The notes beneath the pieces were generated by a model. That model did not search any database. It was not told the origin of the DNA and worked only from the letters and a program-made list of their open reading frames with translations. Shown here piece by piece: positions 5,652 to 45,935 of a DNA stretch of 64,000 nt; position 1 is the stretch's first letter; each line of letters begins with the position of its first letter. Made by a program: the position numbers and the translations under genes. Source of the DNA: an uncultured Clostridia bacterium (GTDB lineage: Bacteria; Bacillota; Clostridia; Christensenellales; UBA1242); contig CAKVLP010000001.1 of assembly GCA_934757825.1 (NCBI GenBank), positions 93,834-157,833 of the forward strand, in the 5' to 3' direction.

Positions 5652-5713
5652 AGACAAAAAGCACGGAAATTCCGTGCTTTTTTGATGTTTTGCATAGTAC
5701 CTAAAATTTAGGT
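5652..5713. repeat. Composite terminator-like repeat, copy A
   Basis: A-run, hairpin GCACGG-AAATT-CCGTGC (5661-5677), T-run, TTGCATAGTAC (5690-5700), second small hairpin ACCTAAA/TTTAGGT (5699-5713). Lies between the convergent T4CP and pilin-like genes and is about 90% identical to copy B over ~55 bp. Confidence 0.7.
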
Positions 5714-6171
5714 TATTTCATTAGCGACAACACTGCTCTTATAACCGTACCCGCATTAGGAACACTTCCTTGATTTGGGTTTTGTTTTACGTCGTTGCCC
5801 GATTTGCCGATAACAGTATCTAGCCAATCAACAATTCCTCCGCCATACTTCACGAATAGTTCTAGCAGTACAAGCAGTACCATTACGCAGATAAAACCAA
5901 TTAGGAAGTTGACTATCCTCTTTTTGGCTTCTGCCCTAGCGTCACCTTCGCTCTTTGAGTAGTTTACGCCCAGCCAAATTGCATATATTGTGCCCGCTGC
6001 CCCAATCGCAAATAGGAATGGTAACAATAGTTCGTTAAGCATATTTCTTATGGTGTCTAGGATTCGCGCGATTCGAGTAGTACGATCGGGTGTCTCCTTG
6101 GTATTCGTTTCACCCAAGAATTGTCCTGCCGAGCCTAAGCCCCAGTATATTTTCGATAAAAAGTTTATCAT
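5713..6171 (-). CDS. Pilin-like (VirB2/TrbC-style) helical-hairpin membrane protein, paralog 1
   Basis: 152 aa with RBS GAGGAAG. Core LLPFLFAIGAAGTIYAIWLGVNYSKSEGDARAEAKKRIVNFLIGFICVMVLLVLL is TM1, a short charged loop and TM2. It shares this core pattern with the two downstream paralogs. Confidence 0.5.
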   Translation of the reverse strand: MINFLSKIYWGLGSAGQFLGETNTKETPDRTTRIARILDTIRNMLNELLLPFLFAIGAAGTIYAIWLGVNYSKSEGDARAEAKKRIVNFLIGFICVMVLLVLLELFVKYGGGIVDWLDTVIGKSGNDVKQNPNQGSVPNAGTVIRAVLSLMK

Positions 6172-6194
6172 ATTCTCTTCCTCTTAGTTTAATT

Positions 6195-6560
6195 TTAAGT
6201 GTTGGAACCAGCATTGCCTTGATCTACAATCCAACCAGCAACATTTGCTGCTTGTTTGATAAATATCTTCATTGCAATAAGCACAATCAAGGAAATTACA
6301 ATACCAATAACCGCGTTGATAAGGCGCTTTTTGGCTTCGTCACGCTTATCTGCGCTCTCTGCTTTTGCAAATTGCACACCTAGCACGATTGCATAAACCG
6401 CACCAGCGACGCCAATCAAAATAATTATTGGAATTAGTAGGCTATCTAGAATTGTGACAAGTGGTCCTATAATTTGCGACCACCAAGAGTTATCATATTC
6501 ACCTTTCAATTTTTCGCCAGTATCTAGCAAAAATCTGCTCATAAACGCCAAAAACCTCAT
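6195..6560 (-). CDS. Pilin-like helical-hairpin membrane protein, paralog 2
   Basis: 121 aa with RBS AAGGGGA. Core LIPIIILIGVAGAVYAIVLGVQFAKAESADKRDEAKKRLINAVIGIVISLIVLIAMKIFI. Confidence 0.5.
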   Translation of the reverse strand: MRFLAFMSRFLLDTGEKLKGEYDNSWWSQIIGPLVTILDSLLIPIIILIGVAGAVYAIVLGVQFAKAESADKRDEAKKRLINAVIGIVISLIVLIAMKIFIKQAANVAGWIVDQGNAGSNT

Positions 6561-6620
6561 ATTTTTCCCCTTAAATTCACGCTTTACTTATTTTATAATA
6601 TCATAGCGCGCGCATTTTGA

Positions 6621-6660
6621 CAAACAAAAAAAGTCAATTTGTTTAAAATTGACTTTTTTG
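6621..6660. terminator. Bidirectional rho-independent terminator between pilin paralogs 3 and 2
   Basis: AAGTCAATTT (6631-6640) pairs with AAATTGACTT (6646-6655), flanked by an A-run and a T-run. Confidence 0.6.
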
Positions 6661-6679
6661 TAAATAATTTTTTCTAGAA

Positions 6680-7048
6680 TTAACTTTGAGTTTTACTTGA
6701 ATCTTCAACCCACTTGAAGATTGCAGCCGAATTAGAAATAAACAACTTCATACCAATCAAAGCAACTAGCATAATTACAATACCAATAACCGCATTGATA
6801 AGACGTTTTTTGGCTTCATCACGCTTGTCTGCACTCTCTGCTTTTGCATATTGTACACCTAATACAATTGCGTATACCGAACCAGCAACACCCAACAAGA
6901 TAATAACTGGAATTAGCAAATTATCCAATACTTCCAAAATAGGAATCAATATTTTTTTAATCCATTCTGGCATACTCCCTGTATCCAACGACTTCCAGTC
7001 AGTTGCGCCCACAAATCTATTCATTACACTTAACATAAAGTTCATCAT
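6680..7048 (-). CDS. Pilin-like helical-hairpin membrane protein, paralog 3
   Basis: 122 aa with RBS GGAGGA. Core LIPVIILLGVAGSVYAIVLGVQYAKAESADKRDEAKKRLINAVIGIVIMLVALIGMKLFI is nearly identical to paralog 2, but the N- and C-termini differ. Confidence 0.5.
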   Translation of the reverse strand: MMNFMLSVMNRFVGATDWKSLDTGSMPEWIKKILIPILEVLDNLLIPVIILLGVAGSVYAIVLGVQYAKAESADKRDEAKKRLINAVIGIVIMLVALIGMKLFISNSAAIFKWVEDSSKTQS

Positions 7049-7420
7049 TTTATAATTTCCTCCAAAGAGTTTTATCCATTTTTATGTTATGATAATATCA
7101 CACTTTTTATTTAACTCAAAACGATTTTCATTATTTTTTTAATTTTTAGTGCTATTGTAGGGATTTAATTTTTACACAAAATACAACTAATGCCCTGCAA
7201 TTTTTTGTTGTTTTTTGTGGCGCAGTTGTTTATGATAGCGCCAATACTTTTTACCGCAGTGGTTATGTACTTTCTTTCACTTAATTATCTTAGTTTTCTG
7301 CCGTCTTAAAACCCCTCACAAAAATAATCGCAAGAATTTCCCAAGTTTTAAATTATTGATATTTATAAAATAACAAAGTTTAGTAAAAGATAAAATTATA
7401 TATAATATATATTTATTTAT

Positions 7421-7449: not shown

Positions 7450-7522
7450 ATGTAAGACAAAATGTTATATTGTCGAAAAATGAAAAATGTATGTAAGTAT
7501 GAACAAATGGGAGAATGTTAAT

Positions 7523-10500
7523 ATGAAAAAAAGCGGTTCTAAAAATATTTTTGTAAATATTATTTTAGGAATATCGATGATGCTATCTATGGTGGGTGGC
7601 ACTTTTTTAATGGTTGACGCAAGGCAAAACCAATTAAGAAAAGCGTATGCCGACGCCACAAGCAATCCTAACGACAACGGGATTACTTTTATATCGACTA
7701 GCGACAGTCAAAACGCCACTGGTCTAAACGGCGGTACATATGTATACAACAACGCCTCAATTAACTACATCGACGTTAAGGGTCTGGTGTATTATGTGAA
7801 AGACGGCAAAGTATACACCTCCCCTTCCCTAGACACAGAAACATCGGACTTAGAATACGAAATAAACGGCTCGTATGTGACAATTGGTGGGATAAATCAC
7901 GAAATCAAAAAAGACATCAAAATGTTTACATACAAGGGCGCGACTTGTTATTACAAGGACGGAATTGTATACGACTCCATAAACTGCCGTAACTCTATCA
8001 CAAGTGACTACGACACCATATACACATATACATACACAAATGGCGGAAACACCTATGTAGGCAAAAACACTATTGACCGCATTTACTTTGGTGCAAACCC
8101 TTATTACAAGATTAAAATGGTTAACGACGCTGACCCTAGCGACACTAAAACAATGTACGCGCTTGTTAAGTCTATTAACTACTACAAATTATACGAAGAA
8201 GAGACAGAAGGGAGCAAAGTCCTAGTAGAGTGTGTCAACGACAACCAAGATATGCCAACGCTAGAAAACATTTTGATCCACTCCAACCTACCAAGTTCGG
8301 GCACTATTGTAGAGGATTATATTAACGTTTTCAATAAACCATACTACATTCACGACAATAAATTGTATGCCAACGCATACTATATTGATATTGACAAAAC
8401 TAATGAATTCGACAGTAAAATTATAGAAAACACAAACAACACAATCACATTTGCCGAATCTGCCACCACAAACACCAAGACACTTCTAGTGTCGGGTGTT
8501 AACCACACTATGTCGGAAGTGGTTATCAACGGCGATGGGTACTATATTGACACATCGGCAAGTGGTCGCTTGACCAAGTTGTACAAAGAGTACACCGCTT
8601 CGACCGCCCACTCGCAATACATTACTATTGACGAAACAAACTCCGACGATACTAGCGCATATGGCGATTATTATACATTAGACGCTTTTAAAGTTGGGCA
8701 AGGATATTCGTATTATGTTAAGGCTGGCGTAACCAACAAATTTTACTCCTTATCTTCTTACGACGAGGAAGGCAGTGGCATCACTATTGACGGCGTAAAC
8801 TACCCTGTTGTAAATAATAAAGTAAAAGTAAACGGCACTTATTACAATGTGGCCGAAAACAAAGTAACAATTGACGGCGAAGACTATCAAGTTGGGAATG
8901 TTGTGTACAGCAAATACAATGTTACCGAAGCAAGTGTAGATGATGCATACATTCTTTCTAGCACCGTGGCAGAAAGAGACGTAAATGGCACAATAACCAG
9001 AGACGGAAGTGCCAGCGTGTTTGCCGAGCCAAGCAACTTGGATTTTAGTTATGTAATTGACTATTCTCCTGAAACCCCAGTAGTGAAAGCGACATTCTCC
9101 ACTGAGACTTTGGACGGGCACGAATTGCCAGGAGTAAGTTATACTTTTAACAGCACCCCAAAAACCACAATCCAGTATTTTATTAACAAATCAAACGACA
9201 TTAAAAAGGCTGGCACCGAAGCGCCTATTGCACAAAAAGCAGATGGTTCGTACGAACTAGAAAGCGATTTTGACATCTCGACTTACGAGCGCGATAAGGT
9301 TAGGATCCAAAAGTTTTCTGGAACGATAAACCGCGGAGCAACAGTGCCAAGTGTTGTACTTGATGAAAAGACTTATTACATTAAGGACGGAGAAAACAGC
9401 ACTCTTTACACCAGCAACACTCTTACACCTAGTACTCAAACAAGAGACTTTAAGGGTCTAACAATTGTTATTGGAACCAATTATGTAAATGTTTACAGGC
9501 TTTTCTCCCCTGTTACGATTAACCGAGTTACCTATTATGTTGCTGACAATGACAACACAAACCTTTACATTATCACAGGCGATGGTACAGCCAACAACCC
9601 ATACAGCGAACGAATTGCACAGCCTGATGAGTTTAGTTATACAATTGAGAAAACAACTAACAAAGTAACTACAACGTTCCGTTATCAATTGACCAACAAG
9701 TTGTTGAAAATCCTTACCTACACAAACAAAGTCGATGATGATGGCACCATTACAAAACTTAACATCGCATCGGATTACTTTACTTACGACACTCAATTCT
9801 TCTATTTCGACAACAAACTTTACACAAAGCAAGTTGACGACAGCACAACGAAAGAAGATTTGCTAAACTACCAGATGAAAGACTTCACTTTTTCAAGTGT
9901 TGTTACCGCAATTACAATTGGCAACGTTAACTACCCTGTTGAGGCTGCCGAATACACCACTGTTTCCATTAACGACAAGCAATATTATGTTGACGGCAAC
10001 AAGTTGTATGCGACTATGCTTTTGGGTTTTGAGGACGGAAACCGCAACCGTCTTATCACATATCAAGACGAAGTTAAAAACGGATTTTTCGACTACAAGA
10101 TTAACGCTTCTAAGAGACTTGTAACCATATTCACCGGCAGTGCGATTGTGACCGACAATGACACGACCGTTACACTAGCCAGTGGAGTTACGTCCAGAAG
10201 CACTTTTGAATCGGACGGAAAAACTTACTATCTTGGCGACGACAACAACATTTATCAAAAGGTTTCTAAAAAGACCACATCAGTGTCGTACAATTCGCGT
10301 AATTACTTTGCATTGAAAGAGCCTTACAAAGATACTACTTATTACATTTCAAAAACAACCTCTGCCAGCAACCCAGAGAACGCACTTAGCATTCCTGCAA
10401 ACACCGCTACTCCACTTGCTACTGTTGCTGGACAAACTTATTCGGCAACTTTCAACAAGGATACTTATAAAGTGACACTAACGCTAAGCAATGGTACTCC

Positions 10501-13500
10501 GGAAATATTTTCTGCTAAAAAAGACGATAAAACTCAGTCGTATTATTTGAGCACATGGGCTTATAACACTACAACAAAATACCCAATGCGCCTTTATATG
10601 TTTGATCGTCTTAGTGTTACATATTATTTCCAAATTCCTGCCGACGGCGACAGCACAATTAGTTATCTATACAGACTGGCAGAAAGAACTACTACAAACA
10701 AGGTATTTGCGGACGTATTAAAAGTTGAAAGCGGAAAGTTTTACTTACCAAATTACTACATCAAGGCTGAATACAGTGAAACGACATATTACTTAAATAT
10801 CCACACAAAAGTGCTTTATGTTGCAGAAGGAAGCAGTTTGAACCCTGTTGACGCCAGTACACTTGAAGCCGAATACGATGCAATTGAAGGAACTATCAAG
10901 TTCACAAAAAGTGGCGAGACAACGATTAAGACTCCAGCCCACACGCTTGACTCCACTGACACTGTGGCAAACAATGCTTGTTTCAGTGTTGAAAATGGCA
11001 GTGTATCCAATCAAATCGCTGAGATCACGATTGACAACTTTAATGTTAACTTTACCGAAAGCACTGGTACCACCTCAATTACCCACACTGATGTAACCTA
11101 CTTACTTCAAGACATTTTGGATTTAAACATTGAGTTTGGGTTTGAAAACGGCCACGAATTCTTTGTGAATGATGCATTTAATGCTCCAAAATCCATCAAA
11201 ATCAACAACACCTCGCTTAAATCATATGGTTATGATTCCGCGACAACAGATACAGATGACGATCCTTACAACAACGGTACTGATTCTTTTCACTTTAAAA
11301 ACAATGTCCAAAACACCGAGAACGCATTTGTTGTAACAAGCAATAATACTTTTGATGAAAATGGTCGGCCAAACAAAATTTATTACAATGTTTATATTCG
11401 CTACAATAGCAGATATTACGTTGTATACTGTGGCACAGAAACCGATCCTAACGAGATACATGTGTATTATATGGAATCATCTCCTATCGCTGAAAATAAA
11501 AGTGGTTCCCCAATATATTTTTCAGCATTCTATAAAGATTTACCATCAATTGAACAAGCAGCCTACAACAACGCTATTTTAAAGGTTTACAGCCCTGGCG
11601 ACAACGACAGTCAACTTGACCCTAAGGGAACTGCATATACATCTAACACCATTACATTTACTGGATTCAAGGACTTTTTAGTAAGGGATTCTTACGTTTA
11701 CAACACAAGCGACTTCTACCTTTACGGCGAAGAAAACAACACTATCACTTACAACGGGCACGATTACACAATCGTTGTTGATGATGCGACAAATGAATCC
11801 CAACTTTATTACAAAACTGACGCTCTAAATCAAATCGAAGCAAGGCAAGTTTATTTCAGTTACACCATTACAGCAAACACTGTTACGGTTGACAACAATG
11901 TAATTGCCACCGATTTAAAGAGTTTTAAGTATATCGAAGTAGGAAGTTCACACTTCATACTAGACGAGGCAAACCAAGTATACGAAAAATTCTCTTACGG
12001 CATACACAGCGTTACACCATTTGAAAAGGCGGGAGATAAAAACTCAGAAAATGCAAAGAGAGTCGCTAGTCAGGTTTACCTTACCCCTACTGCTCAAAAC
12101 TACGATATCTTGAATTCCAACAATCGCGAATATCTTGACAACCAAGCAGATTTAAAGACCCGAGCACAATATGAAAATGGCGCTCAGATAATGCTTCAAA
12201 ACTACCTAAACAGTTATGAACTTCAACAAGGCAATGCAAGCGAACTTGGAAAACCTATCCAAAACGTATATATCCAGTTTGGCGAACAAAAAGACCAAGC
12301 AGGTGCGGGCAATCTAACCGTTAAGAGCGGTGTTACCCTACTTTCTGTTCAAGCATTCCTTAAAAACAAAGAGACCGCTCAGTATTCGACAATTTCAGAA
12401 GGCTACGACATAAACTACGGTGTAAGAATTAAAATTGACGACGTAAGATCGGAAGCAGTTTATTACAATGGTCAGACTGTTATTAACACAAACTACTATT
12501 GGTTCCAATATTTTGACCTTAAAAATATAAAAGCACTTGTTGGGTCGGCCATTGGCACTAGCACCGACGCTATTCCAATTTCGGAGGCATCGGGCAAATA
12601 TACTTTGATTTTCAAGTACTCCTACATTGATGAAAACGGCAGATCTCAATCGGGAAACGAATATGTTTATTCCTTCTATCTAAGCGATGACAGCAACTAT
12701 GTTGAGTACCCTACCCTTAACACCACAATTACCGAAGAAACCGCTCCAACAACTGAGGATCAACTATATGATGTTGTTAAGAAAGTTACAAGTGAAACCG
12801 AAATTAACTACTACTACAATTTCCAAACATTCGATACACCTATTTACACATTCAACGCTTCTAGATATGGTGTGGAATACGACTTTACTTACAACCTTGA
12901 CAACCGCGTTTACACCACCGACTTTAAGATCTACAACACCGCAAGTCAAAGTGCTACAAACGGCGAATACGGCGTTCTAACGATTTACAGAAACGGAGCG
13001 TTCGACGAGTCTATCAAAATGGTGCTAAACCAAGCAAATAGCGCTATTGACTATTACAAAAACGAAATTCTATATGGAAGTTTGTATATTGATAGCAATG
13101 GCAAATTCTATTTGTCACTTGAAAACAATTATTATTACAACGACAAAAACAGATCAGAATACAGCGACGATGCAAGTTATTATCAAAAAGGTAGATTGAT
13201 TAAAAACGGTGCTAAGTCCACTGCCCTAGATTATTATTTCGTTTTGGTACTTGAAGAACTTGGCGATTACACATTCAAAAATATCCGCTTGATTTCTTCC
13301 GGCAACGACCTATCACTAACGACAAGTTTTGAAAACTATCCAGCGGACGTTAAAGGTAACGGCGCAAATAATATCCTAGAAGGATTTAAACAAAAACAAA
13401 TCGGTTCCAAAAAACTTTCGGGGTCGGAGACAATGCAATTTGGTACATTTGTAAATGGCGTGTTCTATTACGACAAAGACGCAGTTGCACCAGCAGACAG

Positions 13501-16500
13501 AAGTGTTTCTAACACCAACGGAAAGTTAAAGATCTATGGTGTAAAAACAGTGTTTAAGAAAGACGGGGTTATGACAAGTTTTAGAAAACTTGACGACAAC
13601 ATCTACTCAAACATTACACAAAATACCATATTTAAAGACGGGACTGGAAACGATATTGATGTAAGCAATAAATCCAACATCAGTGCGCAAACAGCGATTG
13701 AATTTGATCAGGCAAACTACTACTCTGTTCCACTTACAAACTTGCAACCTATTTACTTTAATTATTTGGGCGAGATGATATACAGTCAATCGGAGTACAC
13801 TAGATATCCTGACTTTACTTACGAGACTTACGACGACGGCTCATTAAAGAGTGTTACTCCTGGACCTACATTCTCCACCCTTCAATTCACAAACAAAACC
13901 TCTATCAACAAGTCTGGATTCTATGTAATTAAGGTTACATACAAAGACGAAAGTGATAGCACTGGACAACAAGTCCAATACTTTATGTTTGTTATCGACA
14001 ACACCGCTCCTAATATGCAGATTATGACCCATACGTCCACTACGGATACAGGCTCAATCTTTGTTTCCAACAACGAAATTGCATCTACTAGCAGGTATAC
14101 AAACAAACCATATCTATCGGTTAATTACATTAAACCTACATACTTCCAAGGCGACGTTAGAGTAAGCTACAAGGTGCTTAGTTATGACAACAAAACCACA
14201 CTTGTAAACGAGACCGTATACAATGGTGGACTATTAACAACTCGCGCTGGCAAATATGTATTTACTATTTACTACGGCGTAAACTCATCGAGTTATAACA
14301 CAACATATGTTGTTATTGATAAGTCGACACCTACGGGCGAATTATACAATGTAGATCAATCGAGCACAAACGGCAACGCGTCGTACTACTACACTACTGC
14401 GTACGACAAATACGCGTTTAACTCGCCAAAAGTATTTGTTTCAAACCGACTAAAAGAGTCGGGAGCCCCAGTTAGCGCTAAAATTAAAACCATTACACTA
14501 GAATCGTACTTGCAATTCGCAGAACAACTTGAAGATTACAAGGCGATTACAACCAATGTAATGATTAAAGCAAACATTGAGTTGTTTGACAACACTAGCC
14601 TAGATGACTCCCCTGCTTACAACTTCAAACACCCCGACATAAACGACCACTCGCTTACCAACGGGCAATTACTTGGAATAACCGACCAAACCACAATTTA
14701 TGTAATCAAACTTTATGACAGTGCCGGAAACGAATCGTACTATTTCTACTTCTACGACACAAGCAAGCCATATACACTATTTGAAGACGTAAACACAGGG
14801 GCGGTTAACAAAACCCTTGAAAACAACACAACACAAGGCAACACCAAGGTTATTTGGGGCGACAACAAGGCAATTTATGTAGATACAACCAATGTAGAAA
14901 GCGACACCAACAACCTATACACGCAGTTTATAGCAAAAGTTCGTGCAGATGTTTCTAAATTCAACGGAATTACAGTTAACACCGTAAATGGAAGTACTTA
15001 CTTGTATGTTCCTATTGAAAGCACAGTAGTTGAGAGCGAAAACAACAACGCAGCCAAGATTTCTGCCACCACATCAATAAGTGGTTCGTTTGCAAACAAT
15101 GCGGTTATTTACACCACCAAGTTTGCTTCAAAAAACAACACGCTTAGCAACGCTCCTGGCAACTGGACACTTGTAAACACCGAACTTCGCGCTATGTTTA
15201 GCGGTGACAAAACATACACCTTTACAATCCTAGACAGTGTGGGCAACAAGTTGGTAAAACGCGTGAAAATGAATTCTAGTTTCGCACAAGAGACATTTAG
15301 CGGAAGTTATTTAGACTCCAATAGCGACGAAACGCTAAAAGGCAAAAAGGCCGATCTTGACAAAAACAGGGCTTACACTATTGATACAATCAATGTTAGA
15401 TACCGCGCGCTTGAAGACAACGCAATATTCAAGCCAAAGGTTACTTACGATTACTACTATTTTGCTTATGATCAATTCCTAACCGAGGGTGCTAAATCCT
15501 CCACCAACTTGCCATACAGTGATTTGGCATACGATTTGGAGACGGGAAGTTTGTACAAATTCCACGACGAGAGTTATTACAAATGTACCGATATTAACGA
15601 ATACTTGACCGAAACCAATGCTACTTCCTGGGATACTATCAACAATATCGCAGGAAAATCAAACTTGTTTGTTGCGGGTTATCCTTTCAAACTATCCACA
15701 TCAAATCAAGAGATAACAACAGTTCAAACATCTGTGACCGAAAGTGGCAAAAACGTTTACTATATGGAAGCCAATGGCATCAACCTACAAGGCTCAATCA
15801 CCGCTCCGGGATTATATGTATTCCGCAGAGTGTATATGTACAACGCCGATGGCACATTCGTAACCGAAGAGGATATTGAAAACGCTAGTGACGATAGCGG
15901 GCTAAAAGACCTTGGCGACGACTTCGCTGTAAGATATTACGTTTACTATATCGACCGAAACAACATCATCAATCTTACCTACTCCGACGGCAAGGTAGAC
16001 GCTATTAACAGCGTAGGAAACTTGCTATCAATTGCACTAGGTTCGGTGGAAGATGACAAGATTACTTCGGAAATACTTAAAACTTATGAAACAGTAGTAA
16101 GCGATGAAACTGTAAGTATAAACACCAGCAAGTTAAGAGTTAAGACAGAATTTCCTATCGACAAATATGCTTCAACCGAAAAACTTAACGCATTAAGAGA
16201 TTACGACAACACAAGCAATCAACCTCTTAACAATTTTGCCGAAGCATACACAATCACTAGAAACGAAAACATATTCAAATACAATGTCACACTATATAAG
16301 ATTGGTGTCACAGAGCCTTTAATTAAAGACAACGTATTAAATACAAGCGCAATCGAGCAAATCAACCACAATTACAGTCTTTACGAAAATGGCTCATATA
16401 GGCTTGTAATCACCGACAATGCAGGGCTTAGAGTGATTAACGAAAAAGACGGAACACTTAACGAAATAGGTCAAAACAAATATGTGTTTAACTTTGGAAT

Positions 16501-19500
16501 CAAGTCGGAAAGTCCACTTGGCACATTCCAAACCAAAGCAGACGACTCAGTAGGCACAATTGTTGACCTAGAACTTAGAGACAATTCCAACACGACAGTT
16601 CCAGCAAGCGGAAGAAATTACATCTACAAAAACATCAACAAAGATTATTTGCAGTTTAGTTTCACTCAAAGCCTAAGCATCTACGACGCACAAGTAAATC
16701 CATTTAACGTGAGAATCACTAAAAACGGCACACAAATTCTTCAAACCAACGAAAGCGAAGGCTACGGCAAAAACGAAGCCACCAAGTTTGAGCATTCCGT
16801 GTTACCTACTGGCGTCAAATATGAGGACGTAATTAGCGTCGAGGGTGACGGAACAATTACTCCAAAGACTTACACATTCAAGATTTTTGATAGAAATAAC
16901 ACAAACTACTTGCTATCAAGCGCCGACGACAACGCGACCTACAAGGTTACGCTTGAATTTATAGGTACAGCAAGTGACTATCTTGTTAACTCCGACGGTG
17001 AGGCCCACAACTACTTCACTTCTTCGTTTGAAATCACAGTGGACAATATCGCGCCAGAAAACAACTTAGCAGAACTTGCTTCCAAGGATAAAAACCTTGA
17101 CAACTATTGCTTACAAACCTACGGCAAGACATATATGCAACTTACCAATGGCGAGAGAAGCGAACTTCTTAAAAAGTATGTATTCCCTATTAGTTATCTA
17201 AAATGTCCAACAAGTGAATCCGGCGGAAAAACAATAGGTGTCGGCAATTCAACCACTAACAGCCTAAGATATTATGCTGAAAAAGACGGATATGACGAAG
17301 ATATGGTTAGTGCTATTCTTGACCTTAGTTCAACGTCTGGCAGAGGCTATGAGGCACGTAACTCGCTTATCAAAAAGTACTCTACTGTATTCAACAAAAA
17401 CTACAACGACAGTGTTAAGGTTTACTTAAAGAGCATTGACAGCAATCTTAGAAATTACGAGATTTCGTATCTTCCAAATGAAGAGGGTGACAATCAAAAA
17501 CTTGTGTTCAACAAGTATGACAACGAAACTTATTCACCATACAACTATGACCACACTATCGACAACATGCCAGCGCTATCGTTTACATATCAAAATATGT
17601 CTTCTACGAAAATCCAGCCTGGATACTACGAATTATTTGAGGAAGACGAGGCTGGAAACCTAACTAGATATCTAGTTTATGTAGCCGACAACACGCAAGT
17701 AACTTATGGCATTGACTACGCTTCTTACAATCAAGCCACACAAAGTACCGCAACAAAAGAAGGACTATATTTTGTAAAACTTAACAACGGCAATTATATT
17801 TATATTACCGTTACAAAAGATGCAACAAAAGAAAACACTTACAATAAAAGTTTGAATGACCAATATGGCAACGCCCTATCTTCTAGTGAATATCAAGTTG
17901 TGTACAACAGTGACATTCCTACTTCATTAAAATATGGCGATGTGACCTACTCTGTTGATAAGGTTTACAACACTTCGGATTACACATTTAGATATCAAGA
18001 AGAAAATGGAGCATTTACAAATCTAAGACTTGTTCAAGATGCCAATGGTCAATTCTTAATCTACGACGGCAGTCAACCACGCAATTTTACTGCAACAGCA
18101 GGTTATAGTTATAGTGTGCTTTACAATAAATACAATGTACAAGGAAGCACCACAGAAAAAGTTGTTCCTTATGGAATTACATTGATAACTTATAACACGC
18201 AATACTGCGAAGTATATGGATTTAACGCATACGACATAAATGTTAGTAGCAACAATAAAGAATTAGACCTATTTAAAGTTACAGCATTAAATGCACTTAA
18301 ATATACAAGTGGTGGCGAAGTAACAAATGGTGTGGCAGCCGCTGCTCCTGGGACAGTGGAAGAATATTACTTTGACCAATTTATCACAATCAAGTTGTAT
18401 TCAGGCGTTAAAGGAAGCGACAATCGCTACAACTTTACACTTCTTAACACCCTAGTTTCCGACCCATACAGGTTAACAACTACCAAGTTTATGCAAAACT
18501 TCACAACAATTCTTCAAAGCGTTGTTAATGAAAACACAGGCGTTTACTCTTACAAAATAGAAGTTGTCAATAGATTTGGCGACAACTATGAGTTTATCGT
18601 AAACTTGCCAGATGCAAACCTAGTACTTTCTTATGCAACAATTGATTCAAAACTTCAAGTTTCGCTTCCTGACTCTTCTAAAAACGTTCAGATCACACAG
18701 TTTAATGTTGAGCGCTACGAAAATGGTGCTTGGGTTAAGGTTATCCGTGACGCAAACGGCACCCCTATCCTAAACAAAAACAGCGACGACGAAAAGGCTG
18801 GACTTCCATCAACAAGATATGTGTTTGGCGAAGGTTCCTACAGATTTACTATTCAAGACAACTACCTACGTCAAACAATCGACTACAAGTTTGTAGGCAA
18901 CAAAGACGACTCAATGAGTTTTGACTTTGCTTCTAAAAAACACATTAAAGAAGGCAACAACTACGTTACTTCAGGCGATATGTACATCACATTAGACGAT
19001 AGCCTTTACGAGGTTAACATTGGTCTAAGAGATTGTATTGAGTTTAACAAAGGCGATGATAAACTAAAATTATCCGTATTCAGCGAACATCAAGTTGTAA
19101 ATGGTCAAGTGAGAATTGTAGGACGCGTAGGTACATTTGACGTCGACAACAAATTTAGCGACTACGAATATAAATACGATAACACTACTACTTACCTACT
19201 ATACTACTACTTAGGCAAACTTTATGTTGACAAAAACTGCACAAGGTCGTTATCTGACGCCATTGGGACAGATGCAAACAACTTTAAGTGTTTGATTAAC
19301 TCCGAGCATTGTTATAAGTCAGATGTTCGCCTTGACGGCAAAACGACTTACAGGCTATCGTCTACTATTCTTGGAAACAATGCACTTATCAACGACTTTG
19401 TATTTACTATCAACTGGGCGGTTGACCCTGACAATGTGACATACTACACATTGAAAATCGACCAAACAAAGCCAGTTATTACACTAATATCCGAAAACGA

Positions 19501-39034: not shown

Positions 39035-39109
39035 GCTACTGTGGCTCAGCGGTAGAGCACTGCCTTGGTAAGGCAGGGGTCACGGGTCCGATTCCCGTCA
39101 GTAGCTCCA
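39035..39109 (+). tRNA. tRNA-Thr (anticodon GGU), with encoded CCA
   Basis: Manual cloverleaf. Acceptor GCTACTG/CAGTAGC, D-arm GCTC-AGCGGTA-GAGC, anticodon arm CTGCC-TTGGTAA-GGCAG, variable loop GGGTC, T-arm ACGGG-TCCGATT-CCCGT, discriminator T, then CCA. Confidence 0.85.
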
Positions 39110-45185: not shown

Positions 45186-45935
45186 ATGACGAAATCAAAG
45201 CAATGTTTAAATTCTAATCATTTGAAATTGATTGCTATTATCGCAATGACAATAGACCACATTTGCGATTTAGTTTATCCCGGGTTTCCAGCCGAACCAG
45301 CGACAATCACCCTACACATTATTGGGCGCCTAACTGCTCCGATTATGTGGTTTTTCATATGCGAAGGATATCACTACACGCACAATGTCAAAAAGTATAT
45401 GTTACGATTGGGAATTTTTGCATTCATTTCTCACTTTGCCTATTGTTTTGCATTCGGAATAAATATGATTCCTTTTAGTTCTGGAATTTTCAATCAAACA
45501 AGCATTATGTATCCATTATTTATTGCAGTTGTGGTTATGTGGATGCAAGACAACGAATTACCAATGAAGAATTGGGTAAAAAACATTCTAATTGTCCTAT
45601 TGATTTTAAGCACTTTTCCTGCCGATTATAGTTGCATCGCGGTGTTTGCAATTCTCGGCATGCATAAACACAGAGGAAACTTGGAAAAACAAACGCTCGC
45701 AATGCTATTTTGGGTCACAATATACTCGATAGTATCGTTTATTTTTGTGAGCAAAACGTACGCCTTTGCGCAAATCGGTGTTTTGCTAGTATATCCAGTT
45801 TTGAAACTATACAACGGTGAAAAAGGAAAAGCAAAGTGGATGAAATGGTTTTTCTATTTATATTATCCTCTACACCTTATCGTCGTCGGCATCATTCGTA
45901 TTTGCGTATATGGAAACATTAGCCTTTTGTTTTAG
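45186..45935 (+). CDS. TraX-family membrane protein (acyltransferase-like)
   Basis: LKLIAIIAMTIDHICD motif. Polytopic, 249 aa. Confidence 0.7.
   Translation: MTKSKQCLNSNHLKLIAIIAMTIDHICDLVYPGFPAEPATITLHIIGRLTAPIMWFFICEGYHYTHNVKKYMLRLGIFAFISHFAYCFAFGINMIPFSSGIFNQTSIMYPLFIAVVVMWMQDNELPMKNWVKNILIVLLILSTFPADYSCIAVFAILGMHKHRGNLEKQTLAMLFWVTIYSIVSFIFVSKTYAFAQIGVLLVYPVLKLYNGEKGKAKWMKWFFYLYYPLHLIVVGIIRICVYGNISLLF

Follow-up and report, generated by a model that had tools for sequence, protein, structure and literature searches.

The stretch of DNA considered here, hereafter the window, comprises 64,000 nucleotides (nt) from an uncultured Clostridia bacterium (Christensenellales; UBA1242; assembly GCA_934757825.1, contig CAKVLP010000001.1, positions 93,834-157,833 of the forward strand). 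It carries three tandem genes for small membrane proteins, named here par3, par2 and par1 in their order within the array (Table 1), which lie next to the genes of a type IV secretion system (T4SS). No names are recorded for these proteins in the source records. The initial annotation regarded them as pilin-like paralogs with a common core and diversified ends, and the present analysis concerns their family membership, their distribution and variation in related bacteria, and their probable role in the secretion system.

Structure and family membership of the three proteins

The open reading frames (ORFs) of all three genes are located on the minus strand, as had been described, and the paralogy of their products holds. 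BLASTP connects par2 with par3 (E=3e-43, 56% identity) and par1 with par3 (E=2e-24, 37% identity). According to hydropathy peaks, the core of each protein consists of a hydrophobic helix, a basic loop and a second hydrophobic helix. The loop between the helices is AKAESADKRDEAKKR, and its version in par1 is SKSE-GDARAEAKKR. The cores of par2 and par3 had been characterised as nearly identical in both protein and DNA. At the protein level they show 84% amino-acid identity over 63 codons (dS about 1.1, dN about 0.10), but at the DNA level the similarity was overstated, because the corresponding 188-nt repeat (6259-6446 versus 6738-6925) is only 79% identical. The N- and C-terminal tails, initially considered unrelated, are divergent, yet they have in common the N-terminal motif M-x-(N)-F-[LM]...[RG]-F-[LV] and a Trp residue preceding helix 2, and BLASTP aligns the three proteins nearly end to end. 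The C-terminus of par1 bears an extension of 35 amino acids (aa) with a short helix at its end.

Profile searches covering the TrbC/VirB2, Maff2, Mbov_0395-type and holin families left only the pilin-like families as credible; Maff2 (PF12750) is absent from the Pfam matches at E<=1. All three proteins exceed the gathering cut-off of the Pfam family PF18895, T4SS_pilin (26.6 bits), with 29.6 bits for par1, 30.8 for par2 and 32.9 for par3, and the match to this family is precomputed on most of 110 homologs. The NCBIfam model NF045849 (Mbov_0395 family pilin-like conjugal transfer protein) is aligned over its positions 2-79 of 80, with scores of 38.7, 39.8 and 39.6 bits for par1, par2 and par3, respectively, and E-values from 3e-10 to 6e-10. 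Judging by this alignment, the par proteins are homologous to NF045849, below its equivalog threshold. Together with neighbouring genes similar to Mbov_0396 and Mbov_0397, these matches bear out the suggestion that the proteins are pilins in the style of the integrative and conjugative elements (ICEs) of Mollicutes.

The AlphaFold2 (AF2) model of par3 has a predicted local distance difference test score (pLDDT) of 80.9 and contains helices at residues 2-14, 28-68, 73-105 and 107-120, of which the second and third form a long hairpin with pLDDT of 81-94. The model of par1 (pLDDT 67.8) has helices at residues 2-19, 30-73, 77-125 and 140-151, the last of them being the terminal helix that follows a disordered linker. 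Because the loop is rich in Lys and Arg, it is predicted by the positive-inside rule to be cytoplasmic, with both termini outside. Each of the three proteins begins with a short hydrophobic motif, which is conserved and is not preceded by a basic n-region.

Relatives, age of the triplication and variation between strains

Relatives were collected by a scan of one genome per species, which gave 183 matching stretches, and the best 79 loci were examined. All these 79 loci of the 183 belong to metagenome-assembled genomes (MAGs) of uncultured Clostridia from the gut of human, chicken, goat and sheep; many are labelled as Christensenella sp. and a few as Oscillospiraceae or Lachnospiraceae. Counts of layout and co-occurrence given below refer to 81 related loci, and counts of gene copies refer to 82 sources, i.e., these loci and the window. 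Loci and contigs are designated by numbers with the letter L. Among them, L001 is the same contig from a public metagenome, which extends the window leftward (a window coordinate equals 13290 minus the L001 coordinate).

The gene set consisting of the pilin-like gene, the genes of VirD4, VirB6-like and VirB4 proteins and a giant ORF recurs in about 60 species of uncultured Clostridia. VirD4 adjoins the pilin gene in 62 of the 81 related loci and the VirB6-like gene does so in 58, while an ORF of more than 2300 aa accompanies the T4SS genes at the same relative position in nearly all of them. Therefore, the pilin-like gene, whose absence from otherwise homologous T4SS loci would have spoken against the initial annotation, is a core component of this T4SS. 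The usual layout includes the giant ORF(-) and VirD4(-), followed divergently by pilin(+), sometimes an ORF of about 600 aa, VirB6-like(+), VirB4(+) and an ORF of about 1000 aa. Thus, in most relatives the pilin gene is situated upstream of the VirB6-like gene in one operon, directly or after one ORF of about 600 aa. In the clade of the window, VirD4 is interposed between the pilin genes and the VirB6-like gene, and the nearest relatives (L003, L004, L005, L007, L008 and L010) have the same rearranged layout: giant(-), three or four pilin genes(+), VirD4(-), VirB6-like(+), VirB4(+). The number of pilin gene copies is one in 68 of the 82 sources, two in five, three in eight and four in one. Four loci (L037, L049, L060 and L077) have the giant ORF, VirD4, pilin and VirB6-like genes and no VirB4 within the next 7-10 kb.

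Orphan pilin-like genes were found among housekeeping genes (GAPDH/enolase, MgtE/hydrogenase) in L006, L013, L017, L025, L030 and L018 (5463-6179), and the genomes with these orphan copies also hold a T4SS locus. The proteins of L013, L017, L030 and L018 (L018_2) have a classic Sec-type signal peptide and an extra domain of about 100-130 aa, which sits directly before the conserved Trp and the core. This domain is Cys-rich in L013, L017 and L030, and the same Cys-rich domain is kept in L025, which is cut at the contig end. Its motif, CPxCxCT[VI]Y[AG]CS[KR]CW, is fused ahead of the pilin core in several orphan genes. Because these relatives have a signal peptide and a domain at this place, the segment N-terminal to helix 2 is exported in them, and par3 and par2 most likely have their variable tails on the surface side.

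In a neighbour-joining tree, the copies from L003, L004, L005, L007, L008 and L010 group by position and not by genome, forming three positional ortholog groups with an extra duplicate of position 1 in L008. It follows that the triplication predates these species and that the copies have kept their identity; the triplication is thus old. A recent gene conversion between par2 and par3 was considered and rejected, as the core dS is about 1.1 and the nucleotide identity is 78-79%. Because this dS exceeds the dN of the same core so much, the similarity of the par2 and par3 cores is explained by purifying selection on an old duplicate. Between species, dN/dS is 0.06-0.13 in the core and about 0.3-0.7 in the tails, where dS is saturated.

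Differences between strains were studied using contigs L082 and L086, with the window strain as the reference. By their sequences, both contigs belong to the same species as the window: VirD4 and VirB4 proteins are 100% identical and dS is 0.03-0.05. In par3, identity to the window strain is 78% for the whole protein, 64-72% for the N-tail, 92-97% for the core and 39-72% for the C-tail. In par2, L082 has 88% identity for the whole protein and 75% for each of the two tails, and L086 is 100% identical throughout; the core is 100% identical in both. The third protein, par1, is more uniform (whole protein 96-97%, N-tail 100%, core 97-98%, C-tail 91-93%), and the VirB6-like protein is only 59-67% identical as a whole. 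The claim that the exposed ends have diversified is supported by these values, i.e., 39-75% in the tails versus 92-100% in the cores of strains whose ATPases are 100% identical, and the difference between tails and core is significant (Fisher's test, p=1e-6).

A sliding comparison in 100-nt bins gave a background of 98-100% with sharp troughs exactly on the N- and C-tails of par3, the N- and C-tails of par2 and three blocks of the VirB6-like gene, and the bin of the par3 core was at 98%. Between strains, the VirB6-like protein retains 93-100% identity in its transmembrane (TM) blocks but has only 26-56% in a large loop (some 120 aa, aa ~181-300) and in the C-terminal 300-430 aa, so that the variable loop and C-terminal domain mirror the pattern of the pilin tails. 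The giant protein is 98% conserved between strains, with the exception of one small spot. A fourth allele of the par3 tails was found in L090, where VirD4 is 96% identical. In the tails dS is about 1.2, which is about thirty times higher than the background of the locus (0.04). This excess therefore indicates that the tails were replaced by divergent alleles, as a result of recombination or a long-maintained polymorphism, rather than changed by positive selection in place. Silent tail cassettes in the style of Neisseria pilS were sought with tblastn and blastn-short in the window and in its L001 extension, and none were found there.

Transcription signals, neighbouring genes and the chromosomal island

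Positions of the genes, signals and variable segments are collected in Table 1.

Table 1. Features of the pilin-like array and adjacent T4SS genes in the window
Feature	Position	Strand	Details
VirB4-like ATPase gene, 5' end	1-201	minus	first 67 codons, two-TM N-terminal domain; continues beyond the window
VirB6-like polytopic membrane protein, 912 aa	551-3289	minus	NF045848 122.9 bits vs cut-off 90; NF045889 70 vs 70
VirD4-type coupling protein, 689 aa	3532-5601	plus	PF02534 1.2e-50; NF045973 (CD1115 family) 290 bits, cut-off 250
Bidirectional terminator common to par1 and the convergent VirD4 gene	5656-5682	both	12-pair stem
par1	5713-6171	minus	152 aa, third gene; position-3 ortholog group
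par2	6195-6560	minus	121 aa, second gene; position-2 ortholog group
par2 variable N-tail, residues 14-24	6489-6521	minus	75% in L082, identical in L086
Promoter-like site of the par2-par1 unit	6595-6623	minus	TTGTCA-17-TGnTATTAT; consensus scan 10/12
Intrinsic-terminator-like hairpin after par3	6627-6659	minus	arms 6627-6640 and 6646-6659, perfect 14-nt match
par3	6680-7048	minus	122 aa, first gene of the array; GGAGG ribosome-binding site
par3 hypervariable C-tail, residues 105-122	6683-6736	minus	39-72% identity; 100-nt bins down to 76-81%
par3 hypervariable N-tail, residues 19-32	6953-6994	minus	64-72% identity in L082/L086, 4-aa indel
Promoter-like site upstream of par3	7092-7119	minus	TTGAGT-16-TATTAT with TG; consensus scan 9/12
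Giant surface protein, 4602 aa, putative adhesin	7487-21295	plus	divergent from par3; N- and C-terminal hydrophobic anchors

The divergent intergenic region upstream of par3 is 100% conserved between strains. A terminator hairpin between par3 and par2 had been reported at 6631-6655; the hairpin is real, and its limits should be corrected to those in Table 1. It is AT-rich, with an A-run before it and a T-run after it, and has a folding energy of -12 kcal/mol (z=-2.1), but the terminator scan rejects it on its G+C content. In L003, L004, L005, L007, L087 and L090 the position of the hairpin is kept and the stem sequences are different. The wide spacer after gene 1 always contains the A-run, the hairpin and the T-run, the stem being ACCGCAUAUAAUUGCGGU in L005 and GAGGCCUUUCGAGGUCUC in L007. 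The sequence TTGTCA-N17-TATTAT after the hairpin is also present in the closer relatives L003, L004, L087 and L090. Since the hairpin and the second promoter are kept across species, the separate expression of gene 1 is therefore conserved. A separately expressed first gene is the usual arrangement when an abundant major subunit is followed by minor ones. The bidirectional terminator after par1 (-18.5 kcal/mol, z=-4.9) is stronger than the hairpin after par3. A search for structured RNAs in the intergenic regions with Rfam found only a distant tRNA.

The 912-aa protein passes both NF045848 and NF045889, i.e., the MMCAP2_0566/Mbov_0396 VirB6-like families. The full VirB4-like protein, available from L001, consists of 883 aa and scores 584.7 bits with NF045975 (Mbov_0397; cut-off 590); this match takes in its two-TM N-terminal domain (model positions 9-116). 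No Pfam or NCBIfam family is matched by the 4602-aa protein. To the left of the window, L001 16060-20721 is occupied by a gene for a protein of 1553 aa, within which one segment is duplicated, and no match to this protein was found in Pfam, NCBIfam or PDB sequences. Its homologs were found by phmmer in the same species only, and at this place related loci have another ORF, of about 1000 aa. The gene is followed by a 78-aa ORF (L001 20760-20996); these two close the island, and the fructose-bisphosphate aldolase gene comes next. To the right, the giant gene is followed by a Rho-like gene and by YpeB, SleB, SpoIIR and SipL, which are sporulation genes. The Rho-like protein of 375 aa (window 21371-22498, minus strand), encoded immediately next to the island, has Rho N-terminal and RNA-binding domains, with no ATPase domain detected.

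From the aldolase gene on the left and the Rho-like and sporulation genes on the right it therefore follows that the secretion genes form a chromosomal island of about 30 kb in a spore-forming Clostridium. Neither relaxase, integrase, transposase nor DDE recombinase was detected in this island. Recurrent relaxases or integrases are likewise absent from 77 neighbouring ORFs of 19 related loci, as judged from the 25 commonest of 83 families, and the genes flanking these loci are housekeeping ones. A plasmid origin was rejected, as tblastn of par3 against 72,556 PLSDB plasmids found no homolog.

Two other regions of the window may be mentioned. A tRNA-Thr gene (39035-39109) is followed by a stretch of low G+C content extending to 44711 (28% versus about 38%). 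This stretch holds genes of a NUDIX protein, a 687-aa protein of no known kind and a protein with a Bro-N domain, and it may represent a small integrated element. At 45186-45935 on the plus strand, 38 kb from the pilin-like genes, there is a gene of the TraX family (PF05857, E 7e-28). TraX of the F plasmid acetylates the pilin N-terminus.

Probable function, alternatives and known systems

In our opinion, the products of the three genes are probably pilin-like subunits in a T4SS of the monoderm type: one major subunit and two minor ones, all with surface-exposed variable ends. Each par protein would form a helical hairpin in the cytoplasmic membrane, with the invariant basic loop (AKAE..KRDEAKKR) facing the cytoplasm (or the lumen) and both ends outside. 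The VirB4/VirB6-like machine would extract or organise the subunits into an envelope-spanning or surface structure, such as a short pilus or a conduit. By analogy with VirB2, TraA and the arrays of Patescibacteria, the subunits may polymerise into a filament or a wall-spanning conduit, where the conserved hairpin would provide the contacts between subunits and with the lumen and the N- and C-tails would be exposed. The par3 protein is probably the abundant major subunit because its gene has its own promoter and terminator, and par2 and par1 are probably minor or specialised subunits because they are co-transcribed from the second promoter. The tails of par3 and par2 and the soluble loops of the VirB6-like protein are exchanged between strains as divergent alleles, and this points to a diversifying pressure from outside the cell, which may come from phages, host antibodies or partner specificity.

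The par proteins resemble VirB2, TrbC and TraA in the sequence of an N-terminal segment, a hydrophobic helix, a short basic loop and another hydrophobic helix, in the predicted orientation with both ends outside, and in being encoded together with VirB4, VirB6 and VirD4. Several observations set them apart from these conjugative pilins of Gram-negative bacteria or weigh against their interpretation as pilins. The NF045849 cut-off of 40 bits is missed by 0.2-1.3 bits in all three proteins. At E<=1 there is no Pfam match of any of them to TrbC/VirB2 (PF04956) or TraA (PF05513), and hhalign against VirB2 of A. tumefaciens and F TraA, the sequences of which were verified against PDB 8cue, 8exh and 5ler, gave a probability of 0.2-0.3%; a sequence-level kinship to VirB2/TrbC, as supposed in the initial annotation, is therefore not supported. 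This absence of profile similarity counts against strict membership in VirB2; the Foldseek search against solved pilins gave no significant match and was uninformative. No recognisable signal or leader peptide is present in the three proteins of the window, and nothing points to their cyclisation or acetylation. Positive selection on the tails is not demonstrable at saturated or elevated tail dS, which indicates only the replacement of alleles. To our knowledge, none of the members of the pilin-like family has been observed to form a filament. Finally, a recent review refers to CDS13 and CDS15 of the Mycoplasma ICE as VirB3-like (PMC12857230).

The last of these points suggests another explanation, namely that the par proteins are non-polymerising channel subunits, assembly or anchor factors similar to VirB3 or CDS15, which would be present in a fixed stoichiometry with the VirB4 and VirB6-like proteins, each paralog occupying its own position. 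Small two-TM proteins encoded beside VirB6-like and VirB4 genes, showing no detectable similarity to solved pilins, would fit such a role, as would the old and stable positional orthology of the three copies. Nevertheless, VirB3 (PF05101) and PrgI (PF12666) are matched by none of the paralogs at E<=1, and the VirB4-like protein has a two-TM N-terminal domain of its own, so that an anchor of the VirB3 type is arguably already there. Hypervariability between strains that is confined to extracytoplasmic tails fits surface exposure better, and relatives with a signal peptide and an exported domain agree less well with a partner of an ATPase. Moreover, the separate transcription of gene 1 with its own terminator suggests an unequal and high expression. 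On balance, such channel subunits seem possible, though unlikely.

A role as self/non-self or entry-exclusion factors was also considered for par3, par2 or both, which would then be paired in an allele-specific manner with variable parts of the VirB6-like protein, similarly to the pairing of TraS and Eex with TraG. Hypervariability in this locus, which is otherwise identical, is confined to the tails of par3 and par2 and the loops of the VirB6-like protein, and new alleles of par3 are always accompanied by new VirB6-like alleles in the same strain, although only four combinations are available. The known exclusion factors, too, are small proteins of the inner membrane whose genes adjoin that of a VirB6 homolog, and both partners have variable regions that are allele-specific (PMC11493245). 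However, they have no homology to the par proteins and are dispensable for transfer, whereas 68 of the 82 sources have the pilin-like gene as a core gene in one copy, and its counterpart in Mycoplasma is needed for transfer from the donor (PMC6030558). In addition, the specificity of TraS, Eex and TraG depends on cytoplasmic determinants (PMC11493245), and the variable parts of the par proteins are predicted to be outside. This role is accordingly improbable. The idea that the genes encode holins or unrelated small membrane proteins lying beside secretion genes by chance may be regarded as effectively refuted. It is suggested by the small size, the two TM helices and very weak matches to PF07332 (13 bits, E=0.11; cut-off 28.4) and to a PHROG holin (E=0.066), but both matches are at noise level, far below the thresholds, so that the confident holin match which could have overturned the initial annotation was not obtained. 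There was no significant structural match of the par proteins to viral proteins, neither endolysin nor phage genes adjoin the array, PADLOC found no defence system, and the synteny with the T4SS is conserved in about 60 species.

Among the closest known systems, a counterpart of these presumed pilin-like subunits belongs to the Mycoplasma ICE, in which the genes are arranged in the order CDS14 (surface lipoprotein), CDS15 (TM protein of 95-121 aa), CDS16 and CDS17 (PMC6813540). From gene order and size, we infer that Mbov_0395 of NF045849 is CDS15. Disruption of CDS15 with a transposon abolishes the transfer of ICEA (PMC6030558). Both groups are small two-TM proteins (95-152 aa) connected by the full-length profile match (E ~3e-10) and encoded with Mbov_0396-like and Mbov_0397-like genes and a large surface protein (PMC6813540), and the usual layout of the Clostridia loci parallels CDS14-CDS15-CDS16-CDS17. 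Unlike the Mycoplasma element, the window comes from a walled spore-former, has three copies instead of one and shows no DDE recombinase, relaxase or integrase in the island.

The T4SS arrays of Patescibacteria (Southlakia epibionticum, TM7x), in the detection of which PF18895 is used, are similar in having tandem, sequence-divergent pilin genes (2-11) near virB4 in a monoderm host, with a chromosomal system usually lacking a relaxase (PMC12102498, PMC12857230). They belong to another phylum and lifestyle, different from those of a sporulating gut Clostridium, and their mean pairwise identity is 25%, whereas the paralogs described here are 37-56% identical and have a strongly conserved core. 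Some of the Patescibacteria arrays are Sec-secreted, in contrast to the copies in the window. The VirB2 paralogs of Anaplasma and Bartonella are also tandemly amplified and variable in their exposed parts, and their variation was interpreted as antigenic or connected with host range, as cited in PMC12102498. However, these are PF04956 VirB2 proteins of diderm intracellular pathogens, and in the Clostridia the variation is observed between strains at orthologous positions and not only between paralogs.

The family itself is already known from Pfam and NCBIfam, and its tandem arrays were described in Patescibacteria. Three features appear to be undescribed in the literature searched: the constant presence of the family in a T4SS of Clostridia that have a wall and form spores, the chromosomal setting, in which a relaxase is apparently lacking and a giant putative adhesin is encoded, and the core-versus-tail hypervariability between strains that is common to the pilins and VirB6-like proteins. 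A tentative and rather doubtful extension of the proposed role is that a widespread group of uncultured gut Clostridia (Christensenella-like MAGs) has a chromosomal T4SS without a detectable relaxase, equipped with a giant adhesin and truly polymerising pilin-like subunits. It would be a walled Gram-positive counterpart of the Patescibacteria system that serves interaction or exchange between cells and not conjugation of the classical kind, and the alleles of the pilin tails and VirB6-like loops could be kept by an arms race or partner specificity.

According to a review of December 2025, VirB2-type pilins are absent from the T4SSs of Gram-positive bacteria, with Patescibacteria as the sole exception (PMC12857230). 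Against this statement stands the constant presence of a pilin-like family in a T4SS of uncultured Clostridia, at least about 60 species of which have it, and homology links the par genes to the channel module of the Mycoplasma ICE. The conserved core and hypervariable tails, together with the similar regions of the VirB6-like protein, would mark the outward-facing parts of a monoderm T4SS. This pattern also offers concrete targets for finding out if T4SSs of Gram-positive bacteria form a filament on the surface and which selection acts upon it.

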